A stretch of DNA of 64,000 nucleotides from Filifactoraceae bacterium (GTDB lineage: Bacteria > Bacillota > Clostridia > Peptostreptococcales > Filifactoraceae): NCBI GenBank assembly GCA_051655155.1, contig JBOFZL010000051.1, forward strand, positions 18,637 through 82,636, written 5' to 3'. The translations under genes and the position numbers were made by a program. Shown in pieces: positions 1,949-42,714 of the stretch. Every line of letters begins with the position of its first letter. The first letter of the stretch is position 1. Below the pieces are notes generated by a model. That model was not told the origin of the DNA. It did not search any database and saw nothing but the letters and a program-made list of their open reading frames with translations.

Positions 1949-2827
1949 ATGAATTTTGGAACAGGAGAAAGACTATTAAAAGTCTGTGAGGAAAATAATT
2001 TATCAATATCAGAGGTAATGTTAAAAAGGGAACTTGAAATAAGTAAGATTTCAGAAAAAGAAATCTTAAGTAAAATGAAACACTCCTATGAAATAATGAA
2101 AAAGGCAACTAAGTGTGCAACAGAAGAAGAAACTAAGACTATGGGTGGCCTTATAGGTGGAGAAGCAAAAAAACTTAAAAAACAGTTTGATGAAAATAAA
2201 AATATAGCAGGAACATTGACATCTAAGGCTATAATGTATGCCATGGGAGTTTTGGAGGTTAATGCATCTATGGGACTTATTGTTGCAGCTCCAACAGCAG
2301 GTTCATCAGGAGTAATACCTGGAGTTTTTGTAGCATTACAAGAAGAAAGAGCATTTAGCGATGAAGCTATGGTAAAAGCTTTATTCAATGCAGGTGCAAT
2401 AGGCTATTTAATAACAAGAAATGCAACAGTAGCAGGAGCGGATGGAGGATGTCAAGCAGAAATAGGGGCAGCCTCGGCAATGGCAGCTTCAGCTATAACT
2501 GAATTAATGGGAGGAAGCCCAAGACAATGCCTAAATGCAGCTTCAACGGCAATAGCAAATATATTAGGACTTGTATGTGATCCAATAGCAGGCTTAGTTG
2601 AATCTCCTTGTCAAAAACGTAATGGAATGGGAGCGTCTAATGCAATTATAAGTGCAGAAATAACTTTGGCAGGAATAGGCGAGTTAATTCCGTTTGATCA
2701 AGTGGTAGAAGCTATGTATAAAGTAGGAAAATCATTACCATTTGAGTTAAGGGAGTCAGCACTAGGAGGAATGGCAGGAACTTTAACAGGCTGTAGCTTA
2801 TGCCAGAAAATATTTCCGAATAACTAA
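1949..2827 (+). CDS. sdaAA: L-serine dehydratase, iron-sulfur-dependent, alpha subunit
   Basis: 292 aa with GGCQAEIGAASAMAA and LGLVCDPIAGLVESPCQKRN motifs. Lies directly after sdaAB. Confidence 0.9.
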   Translation: MNFGTGERLLKVCEENNLSISEVMLKRELEISKISEKEILSKMKHSYEIMKKATKCATEEETKTMGGLIGGEAKKLKKQFDENKNIAGTLTSKAIMYAMGVLEVNASMGLIVAAPTAGSSGVIPGVFVALQEERAFSDEAMVKALFNAGAIGYLITRNATVAGADGGCQAEIGAASAMAASAITELMGGSPRQCLNAASTAIANILGLVCDPIAGLVESPCQKRNGMGASNAIISAEITLAGIGELIPFDQVVEAMYKVGKSLPFELRESALGGMAGTLTGCSLCQKIFPNN

Positions 2828-3018
2828 CTAGAAAATTTATGAAATAATAACCCCTTTTGTTGTACTAGACAAAAATTATTAAAAATTGTCGTTAAGGTAT
2901 AATCATTAAGGGTTTTTATTTTGGAGAATTTTAGCTAATAATATATCAAAAAAATTGCAACAAGAAGTATCTATTTATGCTAAAATAAAAATAAAGTTTC
3001 AAATAAAGAGGTAAATTT

Positions 3019-6000
3019 ATGGATGTATTAAGAAAAACACTGGATCAACTAGAACTAAAGGTGAATAAAATAGATTATATACCAGCAGAAGAAACTATTT
3101 TTATAATAGTTGAAAAAGATGAGATTTTTGACTGTAAATGTTTTAAAGAAATAGAAGGTGGATTTAAGGGAAGGACAGGAAAGAGTCTTATGATATTCCC
3201 TAAATTTAAGGTTGATAAAAGTTTTGAAGAAGTCTTTAAAGATTATAAAAATCGAATAGAGTCAATTATTTTTGAAAATAGTGTACTTGCAGAAAAGATG
3301 GAAGTGAAACCTGAAATAACCTTAGAAAATAGGGAGATTTCTATAAAAATAAACAATAAAGTACTTTGTAAAAGTTTAAAAAAAAATAATGTGGATAAAA
3401 TGATAAGAGACAGGATAGTCTTTGAGTTAGGGGAGAATATAAAGGTAAATTTAATAGAAGATAAAAAAGATGAAAGCTTAATTCAATTTAGAGAAAATAA
3501 CATATCAAAAATATCAGAGCTTGCAGAAAATATCAGTCAGCAGCATAGTATCACACAAAAAAACAAAGTGATAAAAGAAACAAGTAAAAAACCAATAAAA
3601 GATAAAAATGCAATATATGGAAAGCATTTTAATGATGAAGCATTAGATATTGGATTAGTAACAGATATAGGTGCAAATATTGTTATTGCAGGAGAAGTTT
3701 TCTTGTCAGATAAAAGGGAAATAACTTTAAAACCAAAGCCAGAATATAAAAATCAAGCGGAACGTAAAAAAACCTTGCATACATTTACAATAACAGATTA
3801 TACAGGTTCAATGTCTTGTAAAATATTTGCAGACCAAAATGAAGATATAGTAAAAAAAGGTGACTATATAGTGGTTAAAGGTGATGTGGCAATGGATAAC
3901 TATGCTAAAGAGTTAACCCTTTCTGTAAGAAGCATATGTCAAGGTGAGAAACCTGTAAGAGAAGATAGCGCTGTAGAAAAACGTATTGAACTTCACTTGC
4001 ACACAAATATGTCTGAAATGGATGGAATCAACAATGTTAAGGACATAGTTAAAATGGCAAAACAGATGGGGCATAAAGCAGTTGCAATAACAGATCATGG
4101 AGTAGTGCAGGCTTTTCCTGATGCTATGGAAGCAGGGAAGAAATATGGTGTTAAAATATTGTATGGAGTAGAAGGATATTTGATAGATGACGGAAAAACA
4201 ATAATACCGAGAGAGTGTGAAGGGGATTTTGACCAAAGTTTCGTAGTTTTTGATATTGAAACCACAGGTTTAAGTTCTAAATTTGACAAAATAACAGAAA
4301 TAGGAGCAGTTAGGGTTAGGGGAGGAGAGATAGTCAATATATACTCTCAGCTTATAAATCCGGAAAGAACAATTCCATACAATATTACAGAACTTACAGG
4401 AATAGATGATTTTATGGTGAAAGATAAACCTACAATAAAAGATGTGCTTCCTGAATTTTTTGAGTTTGCAAAAGACTCTATATTAGTGGCACATAACTCA
4501 GAATTTGATACAGGATTTATTAAATGCGAAGCAGAAAAACTTGGAATGGAATATACTTTTAAATCTATCGATACTGTAAGTTTAGCCAGAAAATTATATC
4601 CAGATATTAAAAACCATAAGTTGGCAACCTTGGTAAAAAAGTTTTCTATAAAATTAGAAAATCATCATAGGGCAACTGATGACGCTACAGCAACTGCACA
4701 TATTTTTTTAAAGTTCATTGAGGATATAAAGAATATGGGGGTAACTGATTTATCTGAGATTAACGAAAAATTAGGGACAATTAATTTTAAAAATATAAGA
4801 TCTAATCATATAAGTATTCTAGCAAAAAACCAGGAAGGGATTAAAGATTTATACAAACTAATATCAAAAGCTCATATAGAATATTACTATAAAAAACCAC
4901 TTATTCCTAAAAGTTTGTTAGTAAAAATGAAAAAAAATCTACTTTTAGGAACTGCCTGTGAAGGTGGAGAGCTTTTTTCCTCTGTCTACAAAGGACAATC
5001 AGAAGAAGAGTTATTAAAAATAGCTAAGTTTTATGACTATATAGAGATAATGCCAATTGAACATAATAGCTTTATGATTGAAAAATCCATGGTACAGAGT
5101 AAAGAAGAACTTAAAAATATAAACAAAAAACTTTTTAGTATAGGGAAAAAACTCAATATTCCTGTAGTTGCAACTGGTGATGTGCATTATTTATTGCCAC
5201 ATGAAGGAAAGTACAGAGCGATATTACAGTACGGAATGAAATATAAGGATGTATCGGAGGAAAGTTATTTTTATTATAGAACAACAGGTGAGATGTTAAA
5301 AGAGTTTAGTTACTTGGGAGAAGAAGAGGCATATAATGTGGTAGTAAAAAACACAAACCTAATTGCAGATATGATAGATGAAGTAGAGCCTGTACCAAGT
5401 GGAACATTCCCTCCTATAATAGAAGGTTCTGATGTTGAATTAAGGGAAATGTGTGAAAAAAAGGCTATATCAATCTATGGAGAACCATTGCCTGAAATAG
5501 TAAAATCCAGATTAGATAGAGAGCTAAATTCAATTATAGGAAATGGGTATGCTGTAATGTATATTATTGCCCAAAGGCTTGTAAAAGACTCTTTAGACCA
5601 TGGTTTTTTAGTAGGTTCACGAGGATCGGTAGGATCATCTTTTGCAGCGACTATGAGTGATATAACAGAGGTAAATCCTCTCTGCCCACACTATATCTGT
5701 GAAACTTGTAAATACAATAAATTTTTTGAAGAAGGAGAATATGGATCTGGACCAGATATGCCTGATGCAAACTGTCCAAATTGTGGTTCAGCCCTAAAAA
5801 AAGAAGGGTTTGAAATACCTTTTGAAGTGTTTTTAGGATTTGAAGGAGATAAAGAACCAGATATAGACTTAAACTTTGCCGGAGATTATCAAACCAATGC
5901 CCACAAGTACACAGGAGTATTGCTTGGAGAAAAAAATACCTTTAAAGCAGGAACAATAGGAACGGTAGCAGAAAAAACTGCTTTTGGATTTGTTATGAAG

Positions 6001-10616: not shown

Positions 10617-11873
10617 ATGGACAACGCAAATGTTAAAGAGTCTTTGAATCCGTTTCACATTGCCCAAAGACAAGTGAAAAATGCTTGTGACAAATTAGGG
10701 GCAGAACCAGCAGTTTATGAAATTCTTAAGAACCCAATGAGAGTTATCGAAGTGTCATTTCCAGTTAAGATGGATGATGGAACAATAAGAACTTTCACTG
10801 GTTACAGATCTCAGCATAATAATGCTTGTGGACCTTACAAGGGTGGATTAAGATTTCACCCAGCTGTAAACATTGACGAGGTTAAGGCACTTTCTACTTG
10901 GATGACATTCAAGTGCTCTGTTACAGGAGTTCCATATGGTGGAGGAAAAGGTGGAATAGCTATCGATCCTAAAGATTTTTCTCAGGGAGAATTAGAGAGA
11001 ATTTCTAGAGGGTTTGCAGGTGCAATAGCTCCATTTATTGGTGAAAAAATAGATATTCCAGCTCCAGACGTAAATACTAACGGACAGATTATGTCTTGGA
11101 TGGTAGATGAGTATGCTAAGGTAACTGGAGAATATGCTCCAGGAGTATTCACAGGAAAGCCTATTGAATTTGGTGGTTCACTAGCTAGAACTGAAGCTAC
11201 TGGATACGGAGTTGCATTAATGGGTAAAGCTGCGCTTGAAAAATGCGGAGTTGATTTTAAAGGAGCTACTATAGCTGTTCAAGGATTTGGAAATGTTGGT
11301 AGTTATGCTGCTCTTTATGCTCATAGATTAGGAGCTAAGGTTGTTGCTGTATCTGATATTAATGTAACTATTTACAATGAAGATGGTCTTGATATCGAAA
11401 AAATGTTCGTAGATCCAGTTAAGCCATTGGCTAACAATGGATACGGAAAGACTATTACAAAAGAGGAATTCTTTGGTTTAGCAGTAGATGGTTTATTCCC
11501 ATGTGCATTGGAGAACCAAATCACTTCTGCAAACGCTGGAGTTATAAAGGCTAAGGTTGTTTGTGAGGGTGCTAATGGTCCTACTACTCCTGAAGCTGAT
11601 GAAATTTTAGTTAAAAATGGAGTTCTTGTAGTTCCGGATATTCTTGCAAACAGCGGTGGAGTTACAGTTTCTTACTTTGAGTGGGTTCAAAATCTTCAAA
11701 GATTTAGCTGGACTTTCGAAGATGTTCAAGCGAAGCAAGAAGGCTTAATGTACAAGGCGTTTGATGATATTTGGACTCTAATGGGAGAACATAAGGTAGA
11801 TATGAGAACTGCTGCATATATGATGTCAATCAAGAGAATTCAAGTAGCTATGAAATTCAGAGGCTGGTACTAA
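10617..11873 (+). CDS. gdh: Glu/Leu/Phe/Val-family glutamate dehydrogenase
   Basis: 418 aa with the catalytic-Lys region GPYKGGLRFHP...GVPYGGGKGG and the Rossmann motif VQGFGNVG. Confidence 0.95.
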   Translation: MDNANVKESLNPFHIAQRQVKNACDKLGAEPAVYEILKNPMRVIEVSFPVKMDDGTIRTFTGYRSQHNNACGPYKGGLRFHPAVNIDEVKALSTWMTFKCSVTGVPYGGGKGGIAIDPKDFSQGELERISRGFAGAIAPFIGEKIDIPAPDVNTNGQIMSWMVDEYAKVTGEYAPGVFTGKPIEFGGSLARTEATGYGVALMGKAALEKCGVDFKGATIAVQGFGNVGSYAALYAHRLGAKVVAVSDINVTIYNEDGLDIEKMFVDPVKPLANNGYGKTITKEEFFGLAVDGLFPCALENQITSANAGVIKAKVVCEGANGPTTPEADEILVKNGVLVVPDILANSGGVTVSYFEWVQNLQRFSWTFEDVQAKQEGLMYKAFDDIWTLMGEHKVDMRTAAYMMSIKRIQVAMKFRGWY

Positions 11874-11899
11874 GATTTACTAAACAATTAGAATTTTAG

Positions 11900-11940
11900 G
11901 ACAGTGTGTTAGGTATATATCTTGACACACTGTCTTTTTT
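11900..11940 (+). terminator. intrinsic terminator of gdh
   Basis: GACAGTGTGT...ACACACTGTC perfect 10-bp stem followed by TTTTTT. Confidence 0.75.
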
Positions 11941-12037
11941 ATTATTTAAATTATTAATTTTAAAAATGTTTGATTTTCCCTTTCTTTAAGTTATCAAGTA
12001 TGCTATAATCAGTGAAAATCACAATTTGGAGGTTAAA

Positions 12038-13438
12038 ATGGAATTATTTAATGAATTATTGGGGCAAGTGAATGATTTTCTATATGGTAAAATTTTGATT
12101 GCATTACTAATAGGAACAGGGCTTTATTTTACGTTTAGGACAGGTTTTGTTCAGTTTAGATTATTTATTGAATCTATAAGGGTTATTAGTGAGAAGAAAC
12201 ATGATGAAGATAGTGTTTCAAGCTTTGAGGCTCTTATGATTTCAACTGCTTCAAGAGTAGGAGTAGGAAATATTGCTGGGGTTGCATCAGCTATTGCTGC
12301 CGGTGGACCGGGAGCTGTCTTTTGGATGTGGATAATAGCTATTGTAGGTTCTGCATCTGCTTTTATTGAAAGTACTTTAGCTCAGATTTATAAAACTAAA
12401 AGTGGAGATGAGTTTAGGGGAGGACCCGCTTATTACATTGAAAAGGCATTAAATAGTAGAGGCCTAGGAATACTTTTCTCGATTTTACTGATACTTTGTT
12501 TTGCTTATGGATTTAATGGATTACAGTCACATACAATAACTTCAGCTTTTGAAATTTATATAGGAGATGGATTTAGAGAATCTCTATGGCCATTGGTTAT
12601 AGGAGCAATTATTGCTTTAGCTACTGCGTATGTTATTTTTGGTGGTATGCATAGAATAGGGTTTATCTCATCTTATATTGTGCCTATTATGGCCTTTGTA
12701 TATTTAGCTATGGGTATCTATATAACTATTAGAAATTTTGGAGTAATTCCAGAGGTTTTCAACATAATATTGAAAGAGGCTTTTGATATACAGGCTATAT
12801 CAGGAGGCTTTGCAGGCTCTTGTGTAGTTATAGGTATAAAGAGGGGATTATTTTCAAACGAAGCAGGTATGGGTTCTGCACCAAATGCAGCAGCAACAGC
12901 TGATGTAAGTCACCCTGTCAAACAAGGTTTAGTTCAGGTTTTTTCAGTGTTCATTGATACTATGCTAATTTGTACTACTACAGCTTTTATGATATTACTA
13001 ACAGGTGCGTATAAGGTGGAAGGATTATCGGCATTACCGCTGGTTCAAGAGGCTGTAAGTTCTCAAGTAGGAAATTGGGGAATTCATTTTATAACATTTT
13101 CAATTTGTACTTTTGCATATAGCTCAATCATAGGAAACTATGCTTACGCAGAATCAAATATAAAGTTTATAAGTGATAACAAGCAAGTGTTGACTATATT
13201 TAGACTTAGCTGTATTGCTATGGTATTAGCAGGTTCTTTAGCTAGTTTTGATTTAGTTTGGAATATGGCAGATGTATTTATGGGCTTTATGGCTATTGAA
13301 AATATACTTGTTATTTTAATTTTAGGAAACATAGCGATAAAAGCTTTAAAAGATTATACAGATCAGAAAAAATTAGGGAAAGAGCCAATATTTTTGGCTA
13401 AAAATATTGGTTTAGACAATACAGATGTTTGGAAATAA
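12038..13438 (+). CDS. alanine/glycine:cation symporter (AGCS family)
   Basis: About 466 aa, polytopic. Motifs SSFEALMISTASRVGVGNIAGVA and GLFSNEAGMGSAPNAAA are AGCS hallmarks. Start moved to the ATG at 12038 (GGAGG 7 nt upstream). An extended -10 TGCTATAAT sits at 12001-12009. Confidence 0.9.
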   Translation: MELFNELLGQVNDFLYGKILIALLIGTGLYFTFRTGFVQFRLFIESIRVISEKKHDEDSVSSFEALMISTASRVGVGNIAGVASAIAAGGPGAVFWMWIIAIVGSASAFIESTLAQIYKTKSGDEFRGGPAYYIEKALNSRGLGILFSILLILCFAYGFNGLQSHTITSAFEIYIGDGFRESLWPLVIGAIIALATAYVIFGGMHRIGFISSYIVPIMAFVYLAMGIYITIRNFGVIPEVFNIILKEAFDIQAISGGFAGSCVVIGIKRGLFSNEAGMGSAPNAAATADVSHPVKQGLVQVFSVFIDTMLICTTTAFMILLTGAYKVEGLSALPLVQEAVSSQVGNWGIHFITFSICTFAYSSIIGNYAYAESNIKFISDNKQVLTIFRLSCIAMVLAGSLASFDLVWNMADVFMGFMAIENILVILILGNIAIKALKDYTDQKKLGKEPIFLAKNIGLDNTDVWK

Positions 13439-13448
13439 TAAAATTAAT

Positions 13449-13488
13449 AAAATGGACTTTGATTAATATCAAGGTCCATTTTATTTTA
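13449..13488 (+). terminator. intrinsic terminator of the AGCS symporter gene
   Basis: AAAATGGACTTTGAT-taat-ATCAAGGTCCATTTT (15-bp stem with one G.U pair), then a T-rich tail. Confidence 0.7.
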
Positions 13489-13613
13489 TAGATATTTGAT
13501 TAAATATGAAAAGGTATAGAAAAAACTTTATGGATATATTATAATAACAAAAAAGAAGATGCATACAAGAATACTATTAATTATGGCATTGTCTAAAATT
13601 TAGGAGGGTTTTT

Positions 13614-13874
13614 ATGGATAAGTATATTGTGTTTGGTAATAAGTTTTGAAAAGGTTGTGAACCGGTAAAAGAGTTTCTTTTACAAAAAAATATAAATTAC
13701 ATTTACTTAGATATTAGTGAAAACATATTTAATTTGAAACAATTTTTAAAGTATAGGGATCACAAAAATGAATTTGATGATGCAAAAAAAATGGGATTGA
13801 TAGGTATACCTGTATTAGTTGTTAATAACGGTGAATATATAACTTTTGATATAGAAGGATATTTTAATAAATAG
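13614..13874 (+). CDS. glutaredoxin/thioredoxin-fold protein with an in-frame UGA at the first redox position (UxxC); candidate selenoprotein
   Basis: RBS AGGAGGG lies 7 nt before the ATG at 13614. My own translation is MDKYIVFGNKF-[TGA 13647-13649]-KGCEPVKEFLLQKNINYIYLDISENIFNLKQFLKYRDHKNEFDDAKKMGLIGIPVLVVNNGEYITFDIEGYFNK-TAG. The frame stays open for 74 codons after the TGA. The order is beta1 strand, then U-K-G-C, then helix, with a cis-Pro GIP motif. A 7-bp hairpin lies 16 nt after the UGA. The gene is absent from the ORF track because of the TGA. Confidence 0.7.
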
Positions 13875-13883
13875 GAGGAGCCA

Positions 13884-15143
13884 ATGAGTTATACGGATAT
13901 CTTAAGAAGGGAAGTAGTACCAGCTCTAGGATGTACAGAGCCTATAGCAATAGCTTTAGCAACAGCAACAGCTAAAGTGCATTCAACAGGAGAACTTAAA
14001 AGCATTAAACTTATTGCTAGCAAGAATATAATTAAAAACGCAATGGGGGTAGGTATACCTAAAACTAATTTAGTAGGAATAGATCTAGCTATGGCTTTAG
14101 GTTATATAAATGGAGATGCTTCAAAAGGTCTTGAAGTTTTGGAAAATATAAGCGAAGATGATATAAAGTTAGCTAAGAAGATTGTAGAATCAGGAGTTAT
14201 AAGTACAGATTTGTCAAAAACTACCTTGAAATTATATATAGAAGTGATTCTTGTAACTACTGAAACTGTAGTAAAGGTTATATTAAAAGACTCCCATAGT
14301 AATATTGTTTATATAAGTAAGGATGAAAAGGTTATTTTTGAAAAGAATATATCAAAAGAAGTTGTTAAGGTAACTGAAGAAAAGCTTTCTTTAGAAGAAA
14401 TATATAAGTATGTAACTAATGTGGATATTGAAGAAATAAAATTTATGTTAGATGGGCCTGATATGAACGTTAAAATATCTGAAGATGGATTGGATAATCA
14501 TTATGGGTTGGAAATAGGCAGGACAATAAAGGAAAATGTAAATAAAGGGTATTTGAGCGATGATATGATGAATTATGCTATAGCAATGACTGTAGCAGCT
14601 ACAGATGCTAGAATGGCAGGCTCTTCTTTGCCAGTAATGTCTACTTCTGGAAGTGGTAATCAAGGAATAATTGCAACTCTTCCGATTTATGCAATAGGAA
14701 AGAGGTTGGACAGTGGAGAAGAAAAGCTATCTAGGGCTATAGCCTTAAGCCATTTAATGACCTTTTATATTAAGGGGTATTTAGGTAGGCTGTCAGCATT
14801 ATGTGGTTGTGGAGTGGCTGCTGGGATTGGTTCCAGTTGTGGGATTACCTATCTTTTAGGAGGGAGTGTTGATCAGGTGGGCTATGCAGTTAAGAATATG
14901 ATAGGTGACGTGGCAGGAATGGTATGTGATGGGGCAAAAACTGGTTGTAGCTTAAAAGCATCATCTTGCACTTATGCAGCTATAAGGTCAGCGTTAATGG
15001 CTATGGATGATAATTGTGTATCAGCTAAGGATGGGATAGTGGCTGAAAGCGTGGAGCAGAGTATCAAAAATCTTTCAAGGCTTGCCAATGAAGGTATGGA
15101 AAATGCTGATGCTATAATGTTAGATATAATGTTAAATAAGTAA
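13884..15143 (+). CDS. UPF0597 family protein (YhaM/CyuA-like L-cysteine desulfidase family, serine-dehydratase-alpha-like fold)
   Basis: 419 aa. N-terminal VVPALGCTEPIAIALATA plus later Cys-rich segments SALCGCGVAAG and MVCDGAKTGCSLK are characteristic of UPF0597. It starts 9 nt after the stop of the UxxC gene. Confidence 0.8.
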   Translation: MSYTDILRREVVPALGCTEPIAIALATATAKVHSTGELKSIKLIASKNIIKNAMGVGIPKTNLVGIDLAMALGYINGDASKGLEVLENISEDDIKLAKKIVESGVISTDLSKTTLKLYIEVILVTTETVVKVILKDSHSNIVYISKDEKVIFEKNISKEVVKVTEEKLSLEEIYKYVTNVDIEEIKFMLDGPDMNVKISEDGLDNHYGLEIGRTIKENVNKGYLSDDMMNYAIAMTVAATDARMAGSSLPVMSTSGSGNQGIIATLPIYAIGKRLDSGEEKLSRAIALSHLMTFYIKGYLGRLSALCGCGVAAGIGSSCGITYLLGGSVDQVGYAVKNMIGDVAGMVCDGAKTGCSLKASSCTYAAIRSALMAMDDNCVSAKDGIVAESVEQSIKNLSRLANEGMENADAIMLDIMLNK

Positions 15144-15175
15144 AAAATGTGGCTGATTATATCAGCCACATTTTT
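15143..15175. terminator. bidirectional intrinsic terminator (UPF0597 gene / 3D-domain gene)
   Basis: AAAAATGTGGCTGAT-tat-ATCAGCCACATTTTT, a perfect 15-bp stem. Confidence 0.8.
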
Positions 15176-15178
15176 ATA

Positions 15179-16780
15179 TTAAGATATTTTCCAAATTTTT
15201 ACTGAACGTCTTCCCCAATTTAAGGCATTTTTGTGAGTATCTACTACCATGTCTATTTTTTTACCTTTTATCGCCCCACCAGTATCTGTAGCAGTAACAT
15301 AGTAAATTTTCCCAGAAGAGTCTTGTATTTTTAGTTTTGTACCAAGTTTTATAACTCTAGGGTCTACAGCTATGGTTTTATAAGGTATGGGAGCTGTTCC
15401 AGAGGCAGTTCTTGATGGAGTTCCATTATTACATATATGGTGATAGTTTTCTGTACAATAGGCTGTACTGGAAAATGTTCCTAATAATATTTCGCCTTTT
15501 GATGAAACATTGGTTGTTTTTTCAGGATTAGCCTTTACTTCAGGTGTTTGCTTTACCTGTGGTGGAATATAAGCTGGAAGTTCAACTGTATTTGTTATTG
15601 TACCGTGAGAATCCACTATAGAGTCTGTTCTTTTGGTTAAAGTAGTTATAATTCCACCTTCCAGAACTGATATGTTTGTTTTGTTGGCTTTTTCTCCTGC
15701 ATATACAGATTCTGCCATACCAGATATTTCGACCTTTGAATTAGTTCCAATTAGATTCACAATATTAACCTTAGAGTTTTTATCAATTGAAACTTTAACA
15801 TCTTCAGATATTTCAATTCTATCTACTTTACCACTTGCTAAATTAAAATTTTCTCCGGAATTCCATAGATTTACATTAGGAATATTACCTTGTATAGTTA
15901 ATTCTCCGTTAGATTTCACAACTTTAAGAGCTGAAGCCTTAGTTTTTTCATTTAGGGTGATAAGAGAAGTATTATCTCTATTTTCAACTAAGATAGTGTC
16001 AAGAGAGCTATCTACTATATTTATAGTTTTACCACCTCTTATTATAGTTTGTCCTTTAACATTAATATTTTCAAGGTTTATTGTTCCTGAGGAAGCACCT
16101 TCAGCAATAATTAGATTTTTATTTATAGTTACATTTTTAAGATTAACATTTGAATCGTTAATAATAAGGCTACCATCTATTGCTTCAGAGTAAACTTTAC
16201 CTTCTTTATATATGTCAGATATACTAAGGTTAGCCATTGTAAGAAATTCTTCTTTGGTGATAGCTTGGTTAGGATTAAACTCACTACCAAAAGGCAGATT
16301 GCCCATATCCTTCATAGCTCTTATATAAGGAATAGCAGAACTTATGATTTTTGAATTATCAGTGTAACCTGAATCCATTTGTCCAAAATCAACCTTCATA
16401 CCGATGGCTTTAGCAAAGACAACAACAGCATCTTCTCTTGTCATTGGGTTTAATGGATTCATTTTGTTGTCTACAGCTACTAAAAGATTTGCTTTTTCGA
16501 CTTTTAACATAGAGTCTAAGTGTTCACTGGATAAATCGCTATAATTACTGCTTGTCTTACATTGAAGTTTCATTAGATTGTTTATAAAATTAGCAAATTC
16601 TATTCTTTTAACAGGTTTATCATATTCTAATATCCAGTTTTCTTTAGAGATTATTGATCTTTCCTCCCACGCTATAGCCATTTTATTTAAGCTTGACATA
16701 GTTGGTTCAGCGTTAACAGTTCCTAGTGATGAGGTTGCAATTAACGTTGTTAACAACATAAAACTTATTATTTTTTTCAT
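15179..16780 (-). CDS. secreted cell-wall protein: signal peptide, SLH-like repeats, repetitive beta-rich middle, C-terminal 3D (MltA/RlpA-like double-psi beta-barrel) domain
   Basis: Signal peptide MKKIISFMLLTTLIATSSLGTVNA. SLH-like segments (NPMTREDAVVVFAKAIG; FNPNQAITKEEFLTMAN). C-terminus STAYCTEN...GTAPIPYKTIAVDPRVIKLGTKLKI...YVTATDTGGAIKGKKIDMVV matches the 3D domain. Confidence 0.8.
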   Translation of the reverse strand: MKKIISFMLLTTLIATSSLGTVNAEPTMSSLNKMAIAWEERSIISKENWILEYDKPVKRIEFANFINNLMKLQCKTSSNYSDLSSEHLDSMLKVEKANLLVAVDNKMNPLNPMTREDAVVVFAKAIGMKVDFGQMDSGYTDNSKIISSAIPYIRAMKDMGNLPFGSEFNPNQAITKEEFLTMANLSISDIYKEGKVYSEAIDGSLIINDSNVNLKNVTINKNLIIAEGASSGTINLENINVKGQTIIRGGKTINIVDSSLDTILVENRDNTSLITLNEKTKASALKVVKSNGELTIQGNIPNVNLWNSGENFNLASGKVDRIEISEDVKVSIDKNSKVNIVNLIGTNSKVEISGMAESVYAGEKANKTNISVLEGGIITTLTKRTDSIVDSHGTITNTVELPAYIPPQVKQTPEVKANPEKTTNVSSKGEILLGTFSSTAYCTENYHHICNNGTPSRTASGTAPIPYKTIAVDPRVIKLGTKLKIQDSSGKIYYVTATDTGGAIKGKKIDMVVDTHKNALNWGRRSVKIWKIS

Positions 16781-16976
16781 ATTTTATTCTCCTTAATTAT
16801 GTTAATGTAAATTTTTTGTAATTATTTTGGCACGAGATAGATTATATCAGTTTTTTATTAATATGTCAAAAAAGTTACAAAAACTCATTTGAATCAATGG
16901 AAATGATAGGCTTTAGACTTTCTATTGTGGATAATACTTTTATGTGTTAGAATATATGGAGCAAAAGGGATAAAAG

Positions 16977-17125
16977 AAAGCGCCTGAGCCATTTTATGGT
17001 TGACGAGGGTAAGAGTTATCGAAATTTTCGGCGGATGCTCTTAGGGTTCCACAATCCAAGAAATATACAAAGTTAGAGAGTAATCTTTGATACAAAGGTA
17101 TTTCCTGTGGCTCTTTTGCATAATT
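16977..17125 (+). ncRNA. glmS ribozyme: glmS ribozyme (GlcN6P-activated self-cleaving leader)
   Basis: Core signature read directly: A-GCGCCTGAGCC...TTGACGAGGGTAAGAGTTATCGAAATTTTCGGCGGATGCTC. This corresponds to the AGCGCC cleavage-site region, GACGAGG, AUCGAA and UCGGCGGAUGC boxes. It lies immediately upstream of glmS. The 3' boundary is approximate. A possible extended -10 TGTTAGAAT sits at 16944-16952. Confidence 0.9.
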
Positions 17126-17149
17126 TTAAATGTTGAAGGAGAGAATTTT

Positions 17150-18976
17150 ATGTGTGGAATAGTAGGATATACTGGGAGTGACAGAGCCTCTCAAATAATC
17201 TTAAGTGGATTAGAAAAATTAGAGTATAGGGGATATGATTCATCAGGAATAAGTTTATGTGTCAATAATATGATTGAAACAGTAAAGTTTACAGGTAGAC
17301 TTAGGAATCTTACGGAACATCTGGAAGTCAGACCTGTAAGAGCAAATGTTGGTATTGGACATACTAGATGGGCTACTCATGGAGAACCATCTGAAAGGAA
17401 CTCCCATCCTCATATGAATGCTGATGGGACAATATCTGTTGTTCATAACGGAATAATTGAGAATTATCAAGAATTAAAAGAAGATTTGATTAATAAGGGT
17501 TACTTTTTTGTTTCAGAAACTGATACGGAGGTTGTAGTTCATCTCATAGATTATTGTTACAGAGGGGATATTTTAAAGGCTGTATTTGAGGCTGTTAATA
17601 AGCTTAAAGGAGCATTTGCTCTAGGTATAATATCTTCGAATGAGCCAGAAAAGCTTATTGGAGTTAGAAAAGAGTCACCATTAATATTAGGCATAGGTAA
17701 GGGGGAAAATTATATTGCCTCTGATATTCCAGCTATATTGGAATATACTAGGGATGTGATTTTTTTAGAAAACGGTGAAATTGCAGAATTGACTAAAGAT
17801 GGAGTTAATTTGTTTGACTTTGAAGGAAATACTGTAAACCGAGAGTGTTTTCATGTGGATTGGGATATTGAGGCTGCATCTAAAGGTGGATATGAACACT
17901 TTATGCTTAAGGAAATATTTGAACAACCTATTGCCATCAAAGATACAATACAAAGAAGACTTGATGATGAAGGTTATATAAAGTTAGATGATATAAAGTT
18001 AGATAAGAAGGCTTTGGAAAATATAACTAAGATATATATTGTGGCTTGTGGAACTGCTTATCATGCAGGAAAAGTTGGAAAATTTGCTATAGAGAAGCTA
18101 GCGAAGATTCCTGTAGAAACAGATATAGCTTCTGAGTTTAGATATTCAGATCCTTTTGTTGATGAAAATACTTTGCTTATTTTAGTTAGTCAATCGGGAG
18201 AAACAGCAGATACTCTAGCAGCCTTAAGAGAGGCGAAGAGAAAAGGTGCTCGTATAATGTCCATCACAAATGTAGTAGGATCATCAATTGCAAGAGAGTC
18301 AAATGATGTACTATATACTTGGGCAGGACCAGAGGTAGCAGTTGCCTCTACCAAGGCATATACTACTCAATTAGTAGCTTTCTATATGATTGCATTAGAT
18401 ATGGCATTAAAGAAAGAAACTATAAGCGTTGAAGAGTATCATAACTATATTAATGAAATTATGAAACTTCCTGAAAAAGTATCGGAAATCATAGAAAATC
18501 TTGATGCAGAGAAGTATGTAGCTGAAAGTATATGTGATATAAATGCACTTTTCTATTTAGGAAGGGGCGTAGATTATCAAACTGCATTAGAAGGCGCTTT
18601 AAAGCTAAAGGAGATTTCATATATATATACAGAAGCTTTTGCGGCAGGGGAGTTAAAACATGGAACTATAGCGTTGATTGAGGAGGGAACTCCTGTAATT
18701 GCAGTAGCAACACAAGAAAATCTTATAGAGAAAATGGTATCAAATATAAGAGAGGTTAAGGCTAGAGGTGCAAAGGTATACTCTATAACTACTAAGACTC
18801 ATAAAGATATTCAAGAGGTTTCGGATTATACTATATTTATTCCGGAAACTATTGATATATTACAACCTATTTTAAGTGTAGTGCCTTGTCAGGCTATTGC
18901 CTACTATACATCTGTATATAAGGGGAATGATGTGGATAAACCAAGAAATCTTGCAAAATCTGTTACTGTTGAATAA
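17150..18976 (+). CDS. glmS: glutamine--fructose-6-phosphate aminotransferase (isomerizing)
   Basis: Begins MCGIVGY (obligate N-terminal Cys after Met removal) with RBS GAAGGAGAG 6 nt upstream. Two SIS domains, C-terminal DKPRNLAKSVTVE. The ORF-track start at 17087 lies inside the ribozyme and is rejected. Confidence 0.97.
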   Translation: MCGIVGYTGSDRASQIILSGLEKLEYRGYDSSGISLCVNNMIETVKFTGRLRNLTEHLEVRPVRANVGIGHTRWATHGEPSERNSHPHMNADGTISVVHNGIIENYQELKEDLINKGYFFVSETDTEVVVHLIDYCYRGDILKAVFEAVNKLKGAFALGIISSNEPEKLIGVRKESPLILGIGKGENYIASDIPAILEYTRDVIFLENGEIAELTKDGVNLFDFEGNTVNRECFHVDWDIEAASKGGYEHFMLKEIFEQPIAIKDTIQRRLDDEGYIKLDDIKLDKKALENITKIYIVACGTAYHAGKVGKFAIEKLAKIPVETDIASEFRYSDPFVDENTLLILVSQSGETADTLAALREAKRKGARIMSITNVVGSSIARESNDVLYTWAGPEVAVASTKAYTTQLVAFYMIALDMALKKETISVEEYHNYINEIMKLPEKVSEIIENLDAEKYVAESICDINALFYLGRGVDYQTALEGALKLKEISYIYTEAFAAGELKHGTIALIEEGTPVIAVATQENLIEKMVSNIREVKARGAKVYSITTKTHKDIQEVSDYTIFIPETIDILQPILSVVPCQAIAYYTSVYKGNDVDKPRNLAKSVTVE

Positions 18977-29912: not shown

Positions 29913-29943
29913 GTGTATAAAATAGAATATAGATTTTATACAC
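29913..29943. promoter_or_regulatory. 11-bp perfect inverted repeat in the adhesin 5' leader
   Basis: GTGTATAAAAT (29913-29923), a 9-nt spacer, then ATTTTATACAC (29933-29943). It ends 41 nt before the adhesin ATG. Confidence 0.45.
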
Positions 29944-29984
29944 AAGTTTATTTAAGAGAGTTGCAAATTGAGAAAGGACAAAAA

Positions 29985-32900
29985 ATGAAAGAACATAATT
30001 ATAGTGAAAAAAGAAAAAACTTATTAAGATCTAAATTTAGTACACGAATACTGGCAGGAGTACTGTCAGTAGCTATGTTTTTAGGAGTATTACCAATAAA
30101 CATTTTTTCTATGGATGAAGTAAAAGAGGTAGTTACTGGAGTATCAGTAGATAAAACTGAATATAATGTAAAAGTAGGAACTGGTGTTAATGAAATAGGA
30201 TTGCCTAAAGAATTGTCAGTAACTATAAGTTTAGAAGGAAAAGAAGAGGGAAATGAACCTGTAAAAATAGAGAAAAACTTAGAGGTGTTATGGGAAGGAA
30301 CGTATGATGGAAATGTGGCAGGAGTATATTCTCTTACATCTAAGTTTACCAATGATATAATACTAGCAGATTCTGTAACAATGCCGGTAGTAAACGTAAA
30401 GGTAGTAACAGAAGAGTTAAATGGAAGTGTTGGCAATGAAGCAGGAGAGACACCACAAGCTGAAGAAAAACCACTTACACAAGAGGCACAAGACTTTATT
30501 AATGGGGTAAATAAGTTAAATAAGGAAAAGGTGTTAGCAGATGTAAGTAGCTTCTTAGCAGATAAGAGCAATGAAGTATTAAAAGCTAGTATATTAGAAG
30601 TTATGACACAAGTTAAGGCAGCGGATGAAAAGTATAAAAGCTTATTAAAAGAAGAGCAACTTTCTACAAAGGTAGTAGAAGCATATACCAGTTTATCAGA
30701 ACTATATCAGGCTATATTACCTATAGTAAATGAAGCCACAGTAGTTATAAAAGATGAAGAATATGACTTTGAAATTAGTGGAAGTAATTCACTTTTTAGG
30801 GCAAATGATGTAGTTAACTTTTTAGAAGGAATAGGATTAAACATAAAGAAAAAAGATGGAACACAGGCAACGGAAGCGGAACTTAAAAATTATGAGCTAA
30901 GAATTAAATCAGTTACAAGTTCAGATGGAAGTTATATATGGAAAGAGGGAGAAACTAGTACTATTGGAGGAGCTTCTCTTAATCTAGAGTATGTTACAAA
31001 TTTTGGGGTATGGAACGTTAAGGAAAATAATTGGGTAGCAAATGTAGAAAAGTCATATAAGAAGTTAAGGCTTAGCCTAAGAAGTTTAATCTTAGATATG
31101 TTAGATAAAGATGACCAATATATAAATGCAGCTACAGTTAAAGAGTATGTAACAGGAACAGCACCTTTTGATGCTGATGATATTCCAGGAAATGACTCAG
31201 GATCAACAAATGATACAGTCAGAACCTTTGATACAATTGGATATACCTTGAATATTGGGAGTCAAGGTTATACAAATAATTCATTTTATAAAAATGGTTA
31301 TGTAGGATTTAAGATGGTGTTACCATTATCGAAAAGTGAAGCAGAATTTGATATAGGTACTATGGGATGGTTAGTAAGGGGTACTAAAACAGACTATGAC
31401 TACAAGCTAACATACGAAACTATAGATGGAAAAGAATGTCAGATTCTTACAGGATATAGGTATTTAGATGCTGAAAAAATGGGAGTTGCAAATACCTTTC
31501 CTATATCAAGTTTAGAAGTGAATGTGGCTATAAAAGTTAAGGCAATGAAGAATGGAGATGAAGTTAAGCCGGATATATACACATGGTGTGACAAGAATGA
31601 TGTAAAGTTTTATGAAACTGATTATATTTGTCAAAATCAAGCTGAGCATGGGAAGGCGCCTAATGGTGGAAAAGAATTAGTAAAGATAGATATAAAACCA
31701 ATTAAAGTTACAGCAGCACCTAGGTACAATGTGTTTCTTCAACAATGTTCAACTGATTATGTAGATGGAGTAGATAACTTTGATTTTAGTACAGGCAACG
31801 ATTTAGCGCTAAATAAGGATAAGGGGAGTGTATATGGAAGAATATCAGCTTATGGACTTACCTTACAATTGCACAATAATGCTACAAACAAAGGTTTAAG
31901 AGGGATAGAAGTTCCTGATGGAAGCCCGATTACCTTTGATTTAACCTTTGGTGAGCAGTTTAAGCCAGATTCAGCTAGTGCAATACCAATGGATTTAAAG
32001 GGTACAGATAGTAAGTATACTCCTTTGGTATGGAGTTATGAAGGGCATAGCAATGCTGATAAGCAAGCAGATGAAAGGGATGTAGTAAAGTATGGATACA
32101 ACTATTTACCAGGATTATCTGTCTTTAATAATGGAGGTGGAAATATTACTACTAAGTTAGATCCAACACAAGGTAGTAATAAGGTTGCTGATGGAGGAAA
32201 GTGGACAGTTAACCAAAATGGAGATAAGTTGTCATTCACAGTAAGTGACTATAAAATTAACACAGACTACTTTCCAAATTCAACACCTGGAAGAGTTCCA
32301 AATAGGACCGATGTTTATTTTAAGTTACAGGATGGAATAGAAAGTACCTATATAGGGTGTTTTTCAGGAGCTGAGGTTTATGTTGTAGTACCTTTTGGGG
32401 GAGATGGGGATGTAAACCACCCAGATTATTTAGCGACAAAATATGGAAAAGGAACAATACAGTTGACTGTAAAAGATACTAATCTTAAGGCTACTTCTAT
32501 TTCAGGGCAAGCTTTAAATACTGTGGTAGATAATGGAAATCAAGTTGTTAAAGATGATGACTCTAAAACAAGTATATATTATTTATCTAAACCTGGAAGC
32601 TATGAAAATAGGGTACAGTATAGTAGCTCAACTGGAACGGATCTATCAGATATTCATAACAAGTTGGAAAATTATGAAAATGGGAAAGATACTGTAAGTA
32701 TAGGTCAAGGTATTACTATTAAATGGGGAGGTTTCCTTCGTACTAATGGAGAGTTAAGAAATGGTTTAAAAGGTATGAACAGTCTTATGAAGTTTGACGA
32801 TAAGGCGGTAGAAATATCAGGAAATCCAAATCTAATGGGATATAATAAACCAGATCCAAATGGAAAGGCAACCTTTATATATGGAGCTAAAAAAGATGGA

Positions 32901-35900
32901 ACTGGATGGGCAAGTTTTAAAGAGATGCATGATGCAAAAGAGGAAGATCTTATTTATTTTGAGAGTTTAGAAGCTTTAAAAGCTCAAGGATCTATCTGTG
33001 TAGGAGTATTAATGGAATATCGTAGTGATACAGGTCAGATAACTAACACATACGCATTAGGAAGACTCCCAATAACTATTAAAAATGACTATAGCCTAGC
33101 TGGATATGTGGCTCCTGTAATGGAGAGAACTACCCTTTGGACAGGTATAGGGTTTGCTGAAGATGGAAATAGAATTCCTAAAAGATTAGATGTGCAAGCT
33201 GGAAATGCATCTATGCCAGGAAAACCTATGGTTAAGGACTTTACAAGTGGCGAATATATTAAAGCAACCTATGATAATGATGGGAACTATACAGGGGGAC
33301 ATACAGGAACTTCTAATCTTGGAGATAGCGTATATATAGTGCCATACAAGGCAGGTATAAGTAAGTTTGTGTTGCAAAAAAATAACGATGGGACGACAAA
33401 AAATATTTTTAATTTGGATGATGCACAAGAACAAGTAGATTTCAAGTTGGATATGACACTAAAGCAACCAATAGAAACAACTGAAAAAAAGACTACCACA
33501 GTTACAATTGTAGATATCTTACCTTCAGGAACGACATATAACAATGATGCAGTTTTAGGAGGAGAGTTTAAATTAGATAATCCTAAAGGAAAAGGTTATA
33601 AGGGCAGTGTAATAGGAGGAACAGCAGTAGGAGGAAAAGACGATCAGGGGATAGAGTTTGAAGCTGCAACTTCAGGGATTGATGACAAAGGAAATAGTAT
33701 AGTAACCTTTGTGTTTAACAATGTACCAATAGGAACAAAAAGTTTACCAAGTATCTATTACTCAGTAAAAATAAACGGAGCAGCAGCAAAAAATGGACAG
33801 CAGTATAAGAATAGTGCAACAATAAGAACAACAGAAGATAATAGAATTAAAAACCTTACAAATGGGAACTATACTGAAGTTGGTTTTAGTGTAGCAAAAA
33901 ATTCAAGTACGTCTATAAATAAAGTAGCAAAAAACTTGTATGTAGACTATGGGGAAAATATGGAATTTACGCTAACGTGGTTGAATTCAGGTCAAAACGA
34001 TGTTTCTGGAAGCCCAATGATGGATACTATGCCTGCAAATGGAGATGAAAACGGAAGCAAGTTCTCAGGAGGATACACACTTGAAAGCATAAAACTTATT
34101 AATAATAATGGCGCAACGTCAGATTTTTCAGGACTTGAAGTTTGGTATACAACAGACATAAACAACATAGGAAAATATGCTAAAGACTTTAATGATTCTA
34201 GTATTAGAGGAAAATGGAATAAGACGACTGTAGACTCCAATGGAAATGTAATTGGAGTACCGAAAAATGGAGTGATTTCTTGGTGTATATTAGGTACAAT
34301 AAAATCAACCAAAATGATACAGGCTTCTTGTGTGATAAGACCACAAGGAGGAAGTTCGGGAGATAGCTATGTTAATTCAATATCATTAAACGATTCAAAG
34401 GGTATAGCTGTATCTCATATTGTAAGCAGGAAATTATCAGGATTAACATGGTTAGATTCCAATAAAGATGGTCAAAGACAAGATGATGAAAAAAGAATAT
34501 CAGGAATAACAGCAAAACTAGTAACAAAAGTTGATTATGAGGCAAATGGAGGAAAGGCAAAAGGAATAACAAATCTTTCGGGAAGCCTATGTGAAATGCA
34601 AACCAATGCGTTAGGGAACTATGAATTTGTAGATCTACCGGCAGGAGAATTTGTGGTAGTTTTCTTAGATGGAAGTACAGTTCTAGGTGAATACACAATG
34701 ACAAAAACAAAAGCGTCGGGAGTAAGCAACAAAGTGGATAGTGATGCTGTAGAAGTATTAGAAGAAGGACTACTAAAAAGCGGATATATTAAAGACATAA
34801 AGATGCCAGAGGCAAAGGATATAAAATCAAGTCCTTATGTAATTGGAAATCTAGATGCAGGATTATATCAAGTAGGAACAAAGTTTGAAATAACTAAAAC
34901 AGACAACGAGGGTAAAGTACTTCCAGAAGCAGAGTTTAAATTATATAATATAACTTGTAGCGAGACCCATGAGCATACAGATAATTGTTACACTGCAATA
35001 AAAGAAGGTGTAGAAGATAAAGTATGGATAAGTGATGTAGCTGGATATGTAAACTTTGGAGAATTATATAATGGGGTATATAAACTTGTGGAAATAAAAG
35101 CACCAAAAGGATACGAGACACCACAAGGATATTGGAAGATAATAGTAGATAACAAGAAAAAGGATAAGGCAATCGAAATAGCATCAGAAGGAAAAGTACC
35201 ATCATTTACTAAAAATGGAGGAAAATATTCTTTAGCAAATAATAAGGAAGAATTGATAACAGTAGAAGGTAAAAAAATATGGGAAGACAAAAATAACCAA
35301 GATGGAAAAAGACCATTATCTATTATAGTAAACTTATTATTAAATGGAAAAGTAATAGATACAAAGACAGTAACTGAAGCTGATGGTTGGAATTGGAAAT
35401 TTACAGATCTTAAAAAGTATGAATATGGAATAGAAAATATTTATACAGTAAAAGAAGAAAAAGTAGAGGGATATCAAACTAAAGTAAATGGATATGACAT
35501 AACCAATAGCTACACACCAGGGAAGACAAGTGTAAATGTAGTGAAATCTTGGGAAGATGAAAATGACAAAGAAAAAATAAGACCAACTGAAGTAACAATA
35601 AAACTATTATCAGATGGAGTGGATACAGGAAAGCAGATAGTTTTAAGCAAAACAAACAATTGGACAGATTCATTTGTAGATTTAGATGAATACAAAAATG
35701 GAGTAAAAATAGAATATACAATAACAGAAGTAGAAGTATCAGGTTATAAAGCAGAAATAACAGGTGATAAAGTGAATGGATTTACAGTAGTAAACACTCA
35801 TAAACCAACTGGTGGTGGAGGTGGAGTAGATCCTACGAAAGAGCCTGCAAAAATCACTTTAAAAGCAGAAAAGACTTTGGATAATGTGGTAGCAAAAGGA

Positions 35901-39047: not shown

Positions 39048-39599
39048 ATGAGAATAATAGCAGGAAAGTTAAGAGGGAAAGTTTTAAAATCTCCAAAAGA
39101 TGAAAAAGTAAGACCTACCCTAGATAGGGTTAAAGAGGCTGTTTTTAGTATGATTATGCCTTATTTGAGAGATGCTGAAATTTTAGATTTATTCGCAGGA
39201 AGTGGAGCTTTAGGGTTAGAGTCTTTATCTAGAGGTGCAAGGTTTACAACATTTGTAGACGTTAATAAGGATTCTATAATGCTAGTAAAAGATAATGTGA
39301 AGGTTTGCAATATGGAAGAAAGGTCTAGGGTTTTATTACTTGAAGCGAAAGATGCTTTAAGGGAAGCGGTAAGTAAGAATTGGAAGTTTGATATAATCTT
39401 CATGGATCCACCTTATGAGGGGGGGATTGCAAAAAAAGTTTTGCAAGAATTTGATTTTAATATTATAATGAATGAGAAAGGTATTGTCATTGTGGAAACA
39501 GACATCAAGGAATTGACAGATTCTGAAATTGGCAATTTAATGAAAACTAGAGAAAAGACCTATGGTCAAACGCGAATAAGCATATATGAAAGGAAGTAA
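39048..39599 (+). CDS. rsmD: 16S rRNA (guanine966-N2)-methyltransferase
   Basis: MRIIAGKLRGKVLKSP...RPTLDRVKEAVFSM...DLFAGSGALGLESLSRGA...DPPY. Sits next to coaD in the classic pairing. Confidence 0.9.
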   Translation: MRIIAGKLRGKVLKSPKDEKVRPTLDRVKEAVFSMIMPYLRDAEILDLFAGSGALGLESLSRGARFTTFVDVNKDSIMLVKDNVKVCNMEERSRVLLLEAKDALREAVSKNWKFDIIFMDPPYEGGIAKKVLQEFDFNIIMNEKGIVIVETDIKELTDSEIGNLMKTREKTYGQTRISIYERK

Positions 39600-39600
39600 G

Positions 39601-40585: not shown

Positions 40586-40586
40586 T

Positions 40587-42667: not shown

Positions 42668-42714
42668 ATAATAATAAATGTATTTGATTATATGTGCTTG
42701 AGAGGAGAGTCAAG

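Follow-up and report, generated by a model that had tools for sequence, protein, structure and literature searches.

A stretch of 64,000 nucleotides from a Filifactoraceae genome (contig JBOFZL010000051.1, positions 18,637 to 82,636; hereafter the window) contains, at 13614-13874 on the forward strand, what is very probably a functional gene for an 86-residue selenoprotein with a glutaredoxin fold, in which a UGA codon is read as selenocysteine (Sec). We put the probability of this reading at about 0.92. The predicted coding sequence, stop codon included, would give the product MDKYIVFGNKF-U-KGCEPVKEFL...IGIPVLVVNNGEYITFDIEGYFNK. The idea that the UGA encodes Sec came from the initial annotation of the window, and it is now supported by the codons that related loci have at the same column (TGA or Cys), by the intactness of their reading frames, by a conserved hairpin of the type that directs Sec insertion in bacteria, and by the predicted fold of the protein.

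The gene lies in a 445-nt gap between the stop codon of the agcS amino-acid carrier gene at 13438 and the ATG of the next gene at 13884. Its frame begins with an ATG at 13614 and runs through 11 sense codons, a lone in-frame TGA (codon 12; 13647-13649, forward strand) and 74 sense codons to a TAG at 13872-13874, so that the read-through product of 13614-13874 is MDKYIVFGNKF-U-KGCEPVKEFL...GLIGIPVLVVNNGEYITFDIEGYFNK. The TGA stands at the position of the nucleophilic residue of a U-K-G-C motif, with TGA here in 20 loci and TGC or TGT in 4. The resolving cysteine, Cys15, is encoded by the TGT at 13656-13658 (forward strand) and is invariant in alignments A4 and A5. The gap and all of these coordinates are as first described. 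The strong ribosome-binding site (RBS) claimed for the gene, AGGAGGG, is also readily read from the sequence at 13602-13608 (forward strand). However, it lies 5 nt and not 7 nt upstream of the ATG. The standard list of open reading frames (ORFs) did miss the gene, as had been noted, showing at this place only a 46-aa fragment that starts at TTG.

The most direct evidence comes from the related loci. A protein search with a query in which U was replaced by Cys gave two matches, one with Trp at the Sec column and one that starts just after it. The four metagenomic contigs behind these matches represent 2 distinct sequences that share 71-76% identity with the window protein, and all 4 have F-TGA-x-G-C in frame preceded by the same 11 upstream codons. 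A scan of 185,579 species genomes with the region downstream of the TGA then yielded 21 loci. An earlier scan of species genomes with N-terminal patterns, including a Cys codon that a TGA cannot match, had returned no true relatives. The 21 loci come from Tissierellia, Sedimentibacter acidaminivorans, Proteocatella sphenisci, Merdimmobilis hominis and metagenome-assembled genomes (MAGs) of Oscillospiraceae, Lachnospiraceae and other Clostridia. The codon at the first redox position is TGA in 17 of them and TGC or TGT in the other 4 (the loci designated L007, L011, L015 and L025). With the window and the 2 distinct metagenomic relatives, this makes 20 loci that have TGA at the column, and TAA or TAG never occurs there. 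In every locus the start codon is exactly 11 codons 5' of the TGA, and in most a GGAG-type RBS is found at the same distance from it as in the window. Homologs therefore put Cys or TGA at exactly the column that had been predicted (17 TGA and 4 Cys among the 21 genomic loci, TGA in 4/4 contigs). This placement of the TGA is far beyond chance, with the column kept in 19 other independent loci and Cys codons as the only alternatives.

What if the gene is a decaying pseudogene, a former Cys-containing glutaredoxin-like gene struck by a nonsense mutation? The absence of Sec machinery genes from the window would fit this scenario, as would the lack of any annotation of the gene in GenBank. However, the same TGA is found in 19 other loci from several families, and a check for decay found zero further frame disruptions at any orthologous locus. 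Selection on the two sides of the TGA also speaks against decay. When nonsynonymous and synonymous differences are totalled across every pairing of 19 TGA loci, their ratio (pN/pS) comes to 0.37 in the ten codons that precede the TGA and to 0.38 in codons 13-60. In the closest trio (the window, L001 and L003) it is 0.04 upstream and 0.24 downstream. Identity is 22-31% in the 5' untranslated region, which is the random level, vs 85-94% for the N-terminal codons. These patterns indicate that the codons on either side of the TGA are both translated and are under equal purifying selection. In addition, the hairpin downstream of the TGA underwent a compensatory change in the window's own lineage (see below). 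Between them, the conserved TGA, the selection and the hairpin compensation effectively refute the pseudogene scenario, which we consider extremely improbable.

The hairpin is the next piece of evidence for a selenoprotein gene. Bacterial Sec insertion sequence (bSECIS) elements have been described by a consensus with an apical loop of 3-9 nt, an upper stem of 4-16 bp, a G in the first two loop positions, a distance of 16-37 nt between the UGA and the loop, and a minimum free energy (MFE) of -7.5 kcal/mol or lower (PMC13188914). A candidate in the window is the 8-bp hairpin GUAAAAGA-GUU-UCUUUUAC at 13665-13683 on the forward strand, with the apical loop GUU (13673-13675) 23 nt beyond the UGA. 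In all 20 TGA loci there is a stem of 5-8 bp in the same register, with a loop of 3 or 5 nt that contains G[G/U] and a spacing of 22-23 nt. The structural part of the published consensus (PMC13188914) is thus found after the UGA in 20/20 TGA loci, with covariation. The energy criterion is missed by a few AT-rich loci (-6.2 for L005 and L024, -4.5 for L006 and -5.4 for L012).

The covariation is worth considering pair by pair. The core of the hairpin forms in 19/19 aligned TGA sequences and G27 is invariant. Pair 21-35 is G-C in 14 of these 19 sequences, A-U in 5 and broken in none, and pair 26-30 is A-U in 11 and C-G in 3. Column 21 is a synonymous third codon position (GTG/GTA) and column 35 is a second position that switches the residue between Ser and Leu. 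The observed covariation score was reached by 0/500 shuffles, and pairing is 85% in the true register vs 43-59% when the register is slid. In the window pair 21-35 is A-U, whereas its nearest relatives have G-C. This difference points to a compensatory change in the window's own lineage, which in turn implies that selection on the hairpin has continued there. The hairpin has been lost from the divergent Cys forms L011, L015 and L025, which can form 1-3 bp only, with positive energy. There is also a trace of the hairpin in the protein sequences. The residues that the stem encodes (K19, E20, L22 and S23) have an entropy of 0.07-0.5 bits in 131 Sec-type proteins vs 1.2-2.85 bits in 136 Cys-type proteins, whereas control motif columns are conserved in both groups. 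This contrast is supportive but does not settle the matter, because the Cys group is more divergent overall. Altogether, it is the comparative evidence and not the folding of any single sequence that carries the case for a bSECIS.

One of the Cys forms is different. L007 has TGC at the column and still has a full SECIS-type hairpin, and its gene resembles those of the TGA forms L005 and L006. These features give L007 the appearance of a recent Sec/Cys switch.

Database records offer another view of the same column. In the GenBank record of the MAG, the glutamate dehydrogenase gene has the accession MGL5439921 and the gene after the gap MGL5439923, with one number between them that presumably belongs to agcS. 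Because this numbering leaves no room for it, the small gene appears to be unannotated, as the initial annotation had anticipated. When 5.8 billion proteins were searched with a profile, 242 matched, and the best 120 clusters were classified. Of these 120, 57 show Trp at the Sec column, 45 begin with the P-V-K-E GTG that comes right after the TGA, and Cys forms number 16. About 100 of the 120 carry the TGA. An exhaustive search of 1.84 billion representatives at 50% identity found 361 at an E-value of 1e-10 or better. The best 150 of these comprise 119 Cys forms and 31 that are either Trp-containing or truncated, and most have an FLxxRD-type motif together with G-[ILV]-P. The picture that these sequences suggest is of a family of largely Cys-containing glutaredoxin-like proteins with a Sec-rich subclade around the window protein.

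The truncated records raise the question of whether the short form is the real product. On this account translation would start at the GTG (Val18) after the TGA, and the 11 upstream codons would be a leader peptide or non-coding. RefSeq and GenBank do call proteins of 66-75 aa in this manner. In RefSeq, examples named 'hypothetical protein' are WP_212379460.1 (Alkaliphilus sp. B6464), WP_074026322.1 (Merdimmobilis hominis) and WP_352419759.1 (Proteiniborus sp.). Their annotated start is a GTG that closely follows the Sec codon, which leaves them without beta1 and the whole redox motif. Thus, the product of a GTG start would lack the first strand of the fold and both redox residues. Furthermore, the GTG has no RBS in front of it and the upstream ATG has a strong one. 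Finally, the 11 upstream codons are conserved as protein with synonymous variation, and they match the beta1 strand of the Cys-form homologs. One of those homologs, WP_353093337.1 (Tissierella praeacuta), is named 'glutaredoxin domain-containing protein'. The loss of beta1 and the redox residues, the missing RBS and the conserved upstream codons lead us to reject the short product, to which we give practically no chance.

The Trp-containing records suggest something else, namely that an alternative code (code 4 or 25) makes UGA a Trp or Gly codon. The 57 of the best 120 clusters that have Trp at the Sec column would be in line with this. However, homologs have Cys at this column and never a genuine TGG Trp codon or a Gly codon. 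For this reason the Trp calls are gene-calling artefacts on short contigs, where TGA has been translated as Trp (code 4). Usage of stop codons in the window is decisive. Its 48 long ORFs end with TAA (31), TAG (15) or TGA (2), the TGA being a true end in both cases, and under code 11 the ORFs of 1418 and 2274 codons are unbroken. Moreover, the TGA-form gene L018 itself terminates with TGA, which means that one codon is both sense and stop within a single gene. The genetic code of the window is standard, and stop-codon usage refutes the alternative code, the probability of which is negligible.

The initial annotation also gave the protein the layout of the small glutaredoxin, NrdH and YruB proteins. 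The first part of that description has held up and the family memberships have not. An AlphaFold model of an ortholog (P0001, with Trp at the Sec column), 74-76% identical to the window protein, served as a proxy. It has a predicted local distance difference test score (pLDDT) of 81.5 and a predicted template modelling score (pTM) of 0.70, and its elements follow the order beta-alpha-beta-alpha-beta-beta-alpha (b1 4-8, a1 15-24, b2 29-33, a2 38-59, b3 67-70, b4 75-77 and a3 80-85). Residue 12 is just before helix 1 and Pro66 is before beta3. The model thus has the beta1 strand, the redox motif ahead of helix 1, the cis-Pro of G-I-P and the beta3-beta4 pair that had been proposed, as well as a short C-terminal helix after beta3-beta4 that had not been mentioned. 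The top Foldseek matches of the model are all glutaredoxins, with a probability of 1.00. By way of this proxy, the predicted fold of the protein encoded by 13614-13874 is that of a glutaredoxin. The Pfam Glutaredoxin domain (PF00462) is matched by 23/23 family members at an E-value of 0.01 or better (the best at 2.5e-10), and most database homologs have a precomputed PF00462 match, although the window protein itself is just under the gathering threshold (see below). NCBI curated families are a different matter. Against YruB (TIGR02196) the window protein scores 32.1 bits vs a cutoff of 88.55, and the best family member reaches an E-value of 9.3e-12 with none near the cutoff. Against NrdH (TIGR02194) the score is 18.9 bits vs a cutoff of 85.75, and ribonucleotide reductase genes were not seen among the neighbours of the loci.

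Two features mark the subfamily. One is an FLKYRD motif in helix alpha2 (13743-13760, forward strand). Its F44, R48 and D49 never vary, and its L45, K46 and Y47 are conserved to 90% or more. The other, present in most members, is G-x-P-C around the cis-proline of the thioredoxin fold. In the window this proline is Pro66 of G-I-P, encoded by the CCT at 13809-13811 (forward strand). G64 and P66 are invariant and precede beta3 in the model. The Cys right after the cis-Pro is present in 112 of about 130 Sec-type proteins, and the corresponding residue 67 of the window protein (codon 13812-13814) is Val. A third Cys close to the active site, in most members but not in the window protein, may mean different resolving or metal-binding chemistry.

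Several observations weigh against a functional selenoprotein gene in the window, and they should be considered together. The hairpin of the window folded by itself has an energy of -4.8 kcal/mol and a z-score of -0.43 relative to shuffled sequences, which makes it thermodynamically unexceptional alone. The regional MFE, at -8.1 kcal/mol, is inside the -7.5 kcal/mol criterion by a slim margin. Rfam searches of the whole window at the gathering threshold, and of 13580-13900 at E-values up to 10, gave no SECIS-like match. At the protein level, the window sequence (with U changed to C) scores 21.5 bits against PF00462 vs a gathering threshold of 22.9, and it is far below every NCBIfam cutoff. Its clade is also off the family norm, with U-x-G-C instead of U-P-x-C and with Val after the cis-Pro. 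As for the machinery, there is no selA, selB or selD among the annotated ORFs of the 64-kb window or of the fetched flanks, no tRNA-Sec in the 23 loci and no tRNA at all in the window. Lastly, the incorporation of selenium into members of the FLKYRD subfamily is itself a prediction.

Another possibility is that the gene is a recently stranded relic. In this hypothetical scenario the gene encoded Sec ancestrally, the organism has since lost its Sec machinery and translation now terminates at codon 12. It would be consistent with the absence of any other selenoprotein gene from the 64-kb window, in which no second TGA-interrupted gene was found. However, the frame, the RBS and the SECIS are all intact. 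The A-U pair that in the window replaces the G-C of its nearest relatives implies continued selection on the hairpin, and the trio to which the window belongs has a low pN/pS. In addition, the Filifactoraceae are known users of Sec. The family includes Acetoanaerobium sticklandii, which has a complete Sec machinery and eight selenoproteins (PMC3091704), and also Proteocatella, the source of the TGA-form locus L014. By analogy, this supports a Sec machinery in the window organism at the level of the family. A stranded relic is therefore very unlikely in our view, if somewhat less so than a pseudogene.

How does the predicted selenoprotein compare with known systems? YruB (TIGR02196) and NrdH (TIGR02194) are its best NCBIfam matches and have a similar size, a CxxC motif and a thioredoxin fold. 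However, the window family has no rubredoxin or nrdEF gene context. The Uxx-star families (NF041212, NF041114 and NF041211) are glutaredoxin-like selenoproteins of anaerobes with weak N-terminal similarity to the window protein, which scores 16-17 bits with these models vs cutoffs of 66-72 (17.1 bits vs 66 for NF041212). Uxx-star proteins have Sec three residues before the C-terminus, as the NCBI family name suggests. In contrast, Sec in the window protein would be residue 12 of 86, in a canonical active site.

The closest parallel is cGrx1 of Clostridium (Alkaliphilus) oremlandii OhILAs (PDB 7C10/7C12; PMC7642778). It is a clostridial protein of about 84 aa with a glutaredoxin fold, and its U-x-x-C motif, ahead of helix 1, opens with Sec, as is predicted for the window protein. 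Sec occurs natively in cGrx1, at a U(C)PXC site (PMC7642778), and the dithiol form of cGrx1, 7C10, is the best PDB match of the family (profile E-value 2.9e-8; Foldseek template modelling scores 0.64/0.72). Nevertheless, the likeness in sequence is confined to the N-terminal ~46 residues. cGrx1 has U-P-H-C where the window protein has U-K-G-C, and it is without the FLKYRD helix signature. It has also been tied to MsrA reduction and glutathione, whereas no MsrA gene adjoins any of the loci examined here.

Catalogues of selenoproteins provide a wider context. A catalogue of 2006 has UxxC-type Sec glutaredoxins from Alkaliphilus, Moorella and Geobacter, including two 'Grx' selenoproteins of A. 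metalliredigens (PMC1794560), and a 2026 review lists Sec glutaredoxins as experimentally verified (PMC13188914). Thus, the statement that Sec-glutaredoxins are known in clostridia is correct (PMC1794560, PMC7642778), and the window protein would be a known kind of selenoprotein. The catalogue family 'Glutaredoxin (Grx)' (PF00462, UxxC, representative WP_010943784.1; PMC1794560, PMC13188914) shares its domain and motif with the window protein. Like the subfamily described here, it has coexisting Cys homologs and occurs in anaerobic Firmicutes (Alkaliphilus, Moorella). However, that category is defined by the Pfam domain alone, and the window protein is just below the PF00462 gathering score. 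A description of the FLKYRD subfamily as such was not found in the literature.

Taken as a selenoprotein gene, the locus suggests the following sequence of events. The ribosome would meet the UGA at codon 12, and the hairpin at 13665-13683, with its GUU loop 23 nt further on, would act as the bSECIS. It would recruit SelB with Sec-tRNA(Sec), Sec would be inserted and translation would continue to the TAG at 13872. In the folded protein Sec12, positioned before helix 1, would be the nucleophile of the U-K-G-C centre and would attack a substrate disulfide, sulfenate or persulfide. Cys15 would then resolve the mixed Se-S intermediate to give an intramolecular selenenylsulfide, which a reductant would recycle. 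In this Filifactoraceae lineage the gene would be co-transcribed with a CyuA-like gene, and elsewhere in the family it would encode a stand-alone redoxin.

The CyuA-like gene is immediately downstream, at 13884-15143 on the forward strand. It is predicted to encode a [4Fe-4S] L-cysteine desulfidase (UPF0597 / PF03313; 209 bits for PF03313). Its ATG is 9 nt after the TAG of the redoxin gene, and its RBS, GGAGGA (13874-13879), overlaps that TAG. The protein matches the L-cysteine desulfidase of PDB 9FSL over its full length (residues 4-416, E-value 1.3e-36), and it keeps the LGCTE motif, which holds the catalytic Cys and Glu, as well as counterparts of the three [4Fe-4S] cysteines Cys287, Cys329 and Cys336, with residue roles as described for MmCyuA (PMC12647591). 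The two genes are probably co-transcribed, judging from this arrangement and from their surroundings. On the upstream side is the terminator of agcS, a gene at 12026-13438 that matches TIGR00835 at 494.8 bits. This terminator, which the initial annotation had placed here, is real. It is an 18-bp hairpin of -21.6 kcal/mol at 13446-13485 (forward strand), followed by the U-run UUUUAUUUUAU, and it bounds the transcription unit on the 5' side. A promoter-like site, TAGAAA-17-TATAAT, is found at 13517-13545 (forward strand) with 10/12 consensus matches. This is weak evidence and the site is a candidate only, because the count of such sites in the region equals the expectation from shuffles. On the downstream side a palindromic terminator-like hairpin at 15143-15175, with a 15-bp stem and flanking A and T runs, separates the CyuA-like gene from a convergent gene at 15179-16780 on the reverse strand. 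It is likely to be the 3' end of a two-gene operon.

The pairing of redoxin and CyuA-like genes is kept in L001-L004 (in L001 the CyuA-like gene is at 2022-3281 and in L003 at 2508-3767). In L016, from a Lachnospiraceae MAG, a more distant CyuA homolog is located ~0.9 kb from the redoxin gene, at about 11155-12165. The association is not universal. Neighbour clustering at the 23 loci and a Pfam survey of 31 flanking ORFs revealed no recurrent partner gene. Partners are instead lineage-specific, with metK in Proteocatella, an amidohydrolase in Oscillospiraceae and CyuA in the window clade and L016, and the other neighbours are transporters and regulators. A separate peculiarity of L016 is that 11125-13113 is a single 662-codon ORF in which an SDH_alpha/CyuA-like N-terminal part is joined to an SBP_bac_5 solute-binding domain. 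The first part ends at profile position 184/260, and a fusion, a frameshift or an assembly artefact is possible.

Other parts of the window have features of their own. A glmS ribozyme/riboswitch (RF00234, 81.7 bits) is found upstream of glmS at 16968-17115. The mechanically called ORF at 17087-18976 starts inside this ribozyme, and the true start of GlmS is ~21 codons later, because the profile match begins at residue 22-23. An ORF of 2274 residues at 29913-36737 probably encodes a large adhesin of the cell surface. Its C-terminal third contains Cna_B, SpaA, FctA (isopeptide) and SdrD_B domains, and no Pfam family matches the first ~1500 residues at 1e-5. Two overlapping ORFs at 40070-40585 and 40548-40973 (171 and 141 aa) come after an rsmD-like gene (39048-39599) and a coaD-like gene (39586-40101), and neither has a Pfam match. 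Finally, the window is rich in genes for amino-acid catabolism, located at 1272-2827, 10617-11873, 12026-13438 and 42694-44208. They encode the beta and alpha subunits of L-serine dehydratase, glutamate dehydrogenase, the AgcS carrier and a succinyl-CoA:acetate CoA-transferase. This gene content fits the amino-acid-fermenting lifestyle of the Filifactoraceae.

The subfamily has a practical side for annotation. Its members fall short of the cutoff of every NCBIfam model, and a dedicated Sec-aware model would correct what look like many records. In addition, a Trp aligned with a conserved catalytic Cys in metagenomic gene calls made under code 4 could serve as an inexpensive and general way of finding selenoproteins that have been missed.

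For the biology of these organisms, the window gene would be one more Sec-using thiol oxidoreductase in amino-acid-fermenting Clostridia, as expected. The one hint of novelty is that, in this clade specifically, the gene shares an operon with a cysteine/selenocysteine desulfidase. For CyuA enzymes L-selenocysteine, which they degrade to selenide, is about as good a substrate as L-cysteine (PMC12647591), and for this reason the pairing of a Sec-containing redoxin with a CyuA-like desulfidase is suggestive, if unproven. Perhaps the two form a selenium-linked module in this Filifactoraceae clade, and, separately, FLKYRD defines an undescribed Sec-rich family that RefSeq truncates. This is a more interesting idea that we nevertheless regard as unlikely. 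If the module is real, the redoxin would reduce cystine, selenocystine or mixed (seleno)disulfides to provide free Cys or Sec for the desulfidase. Expression of the desulfidase might then follow selenium status through translational polarity, because its gene starts 9 nt after an ORF that needs Sec-tRNA(Sec).

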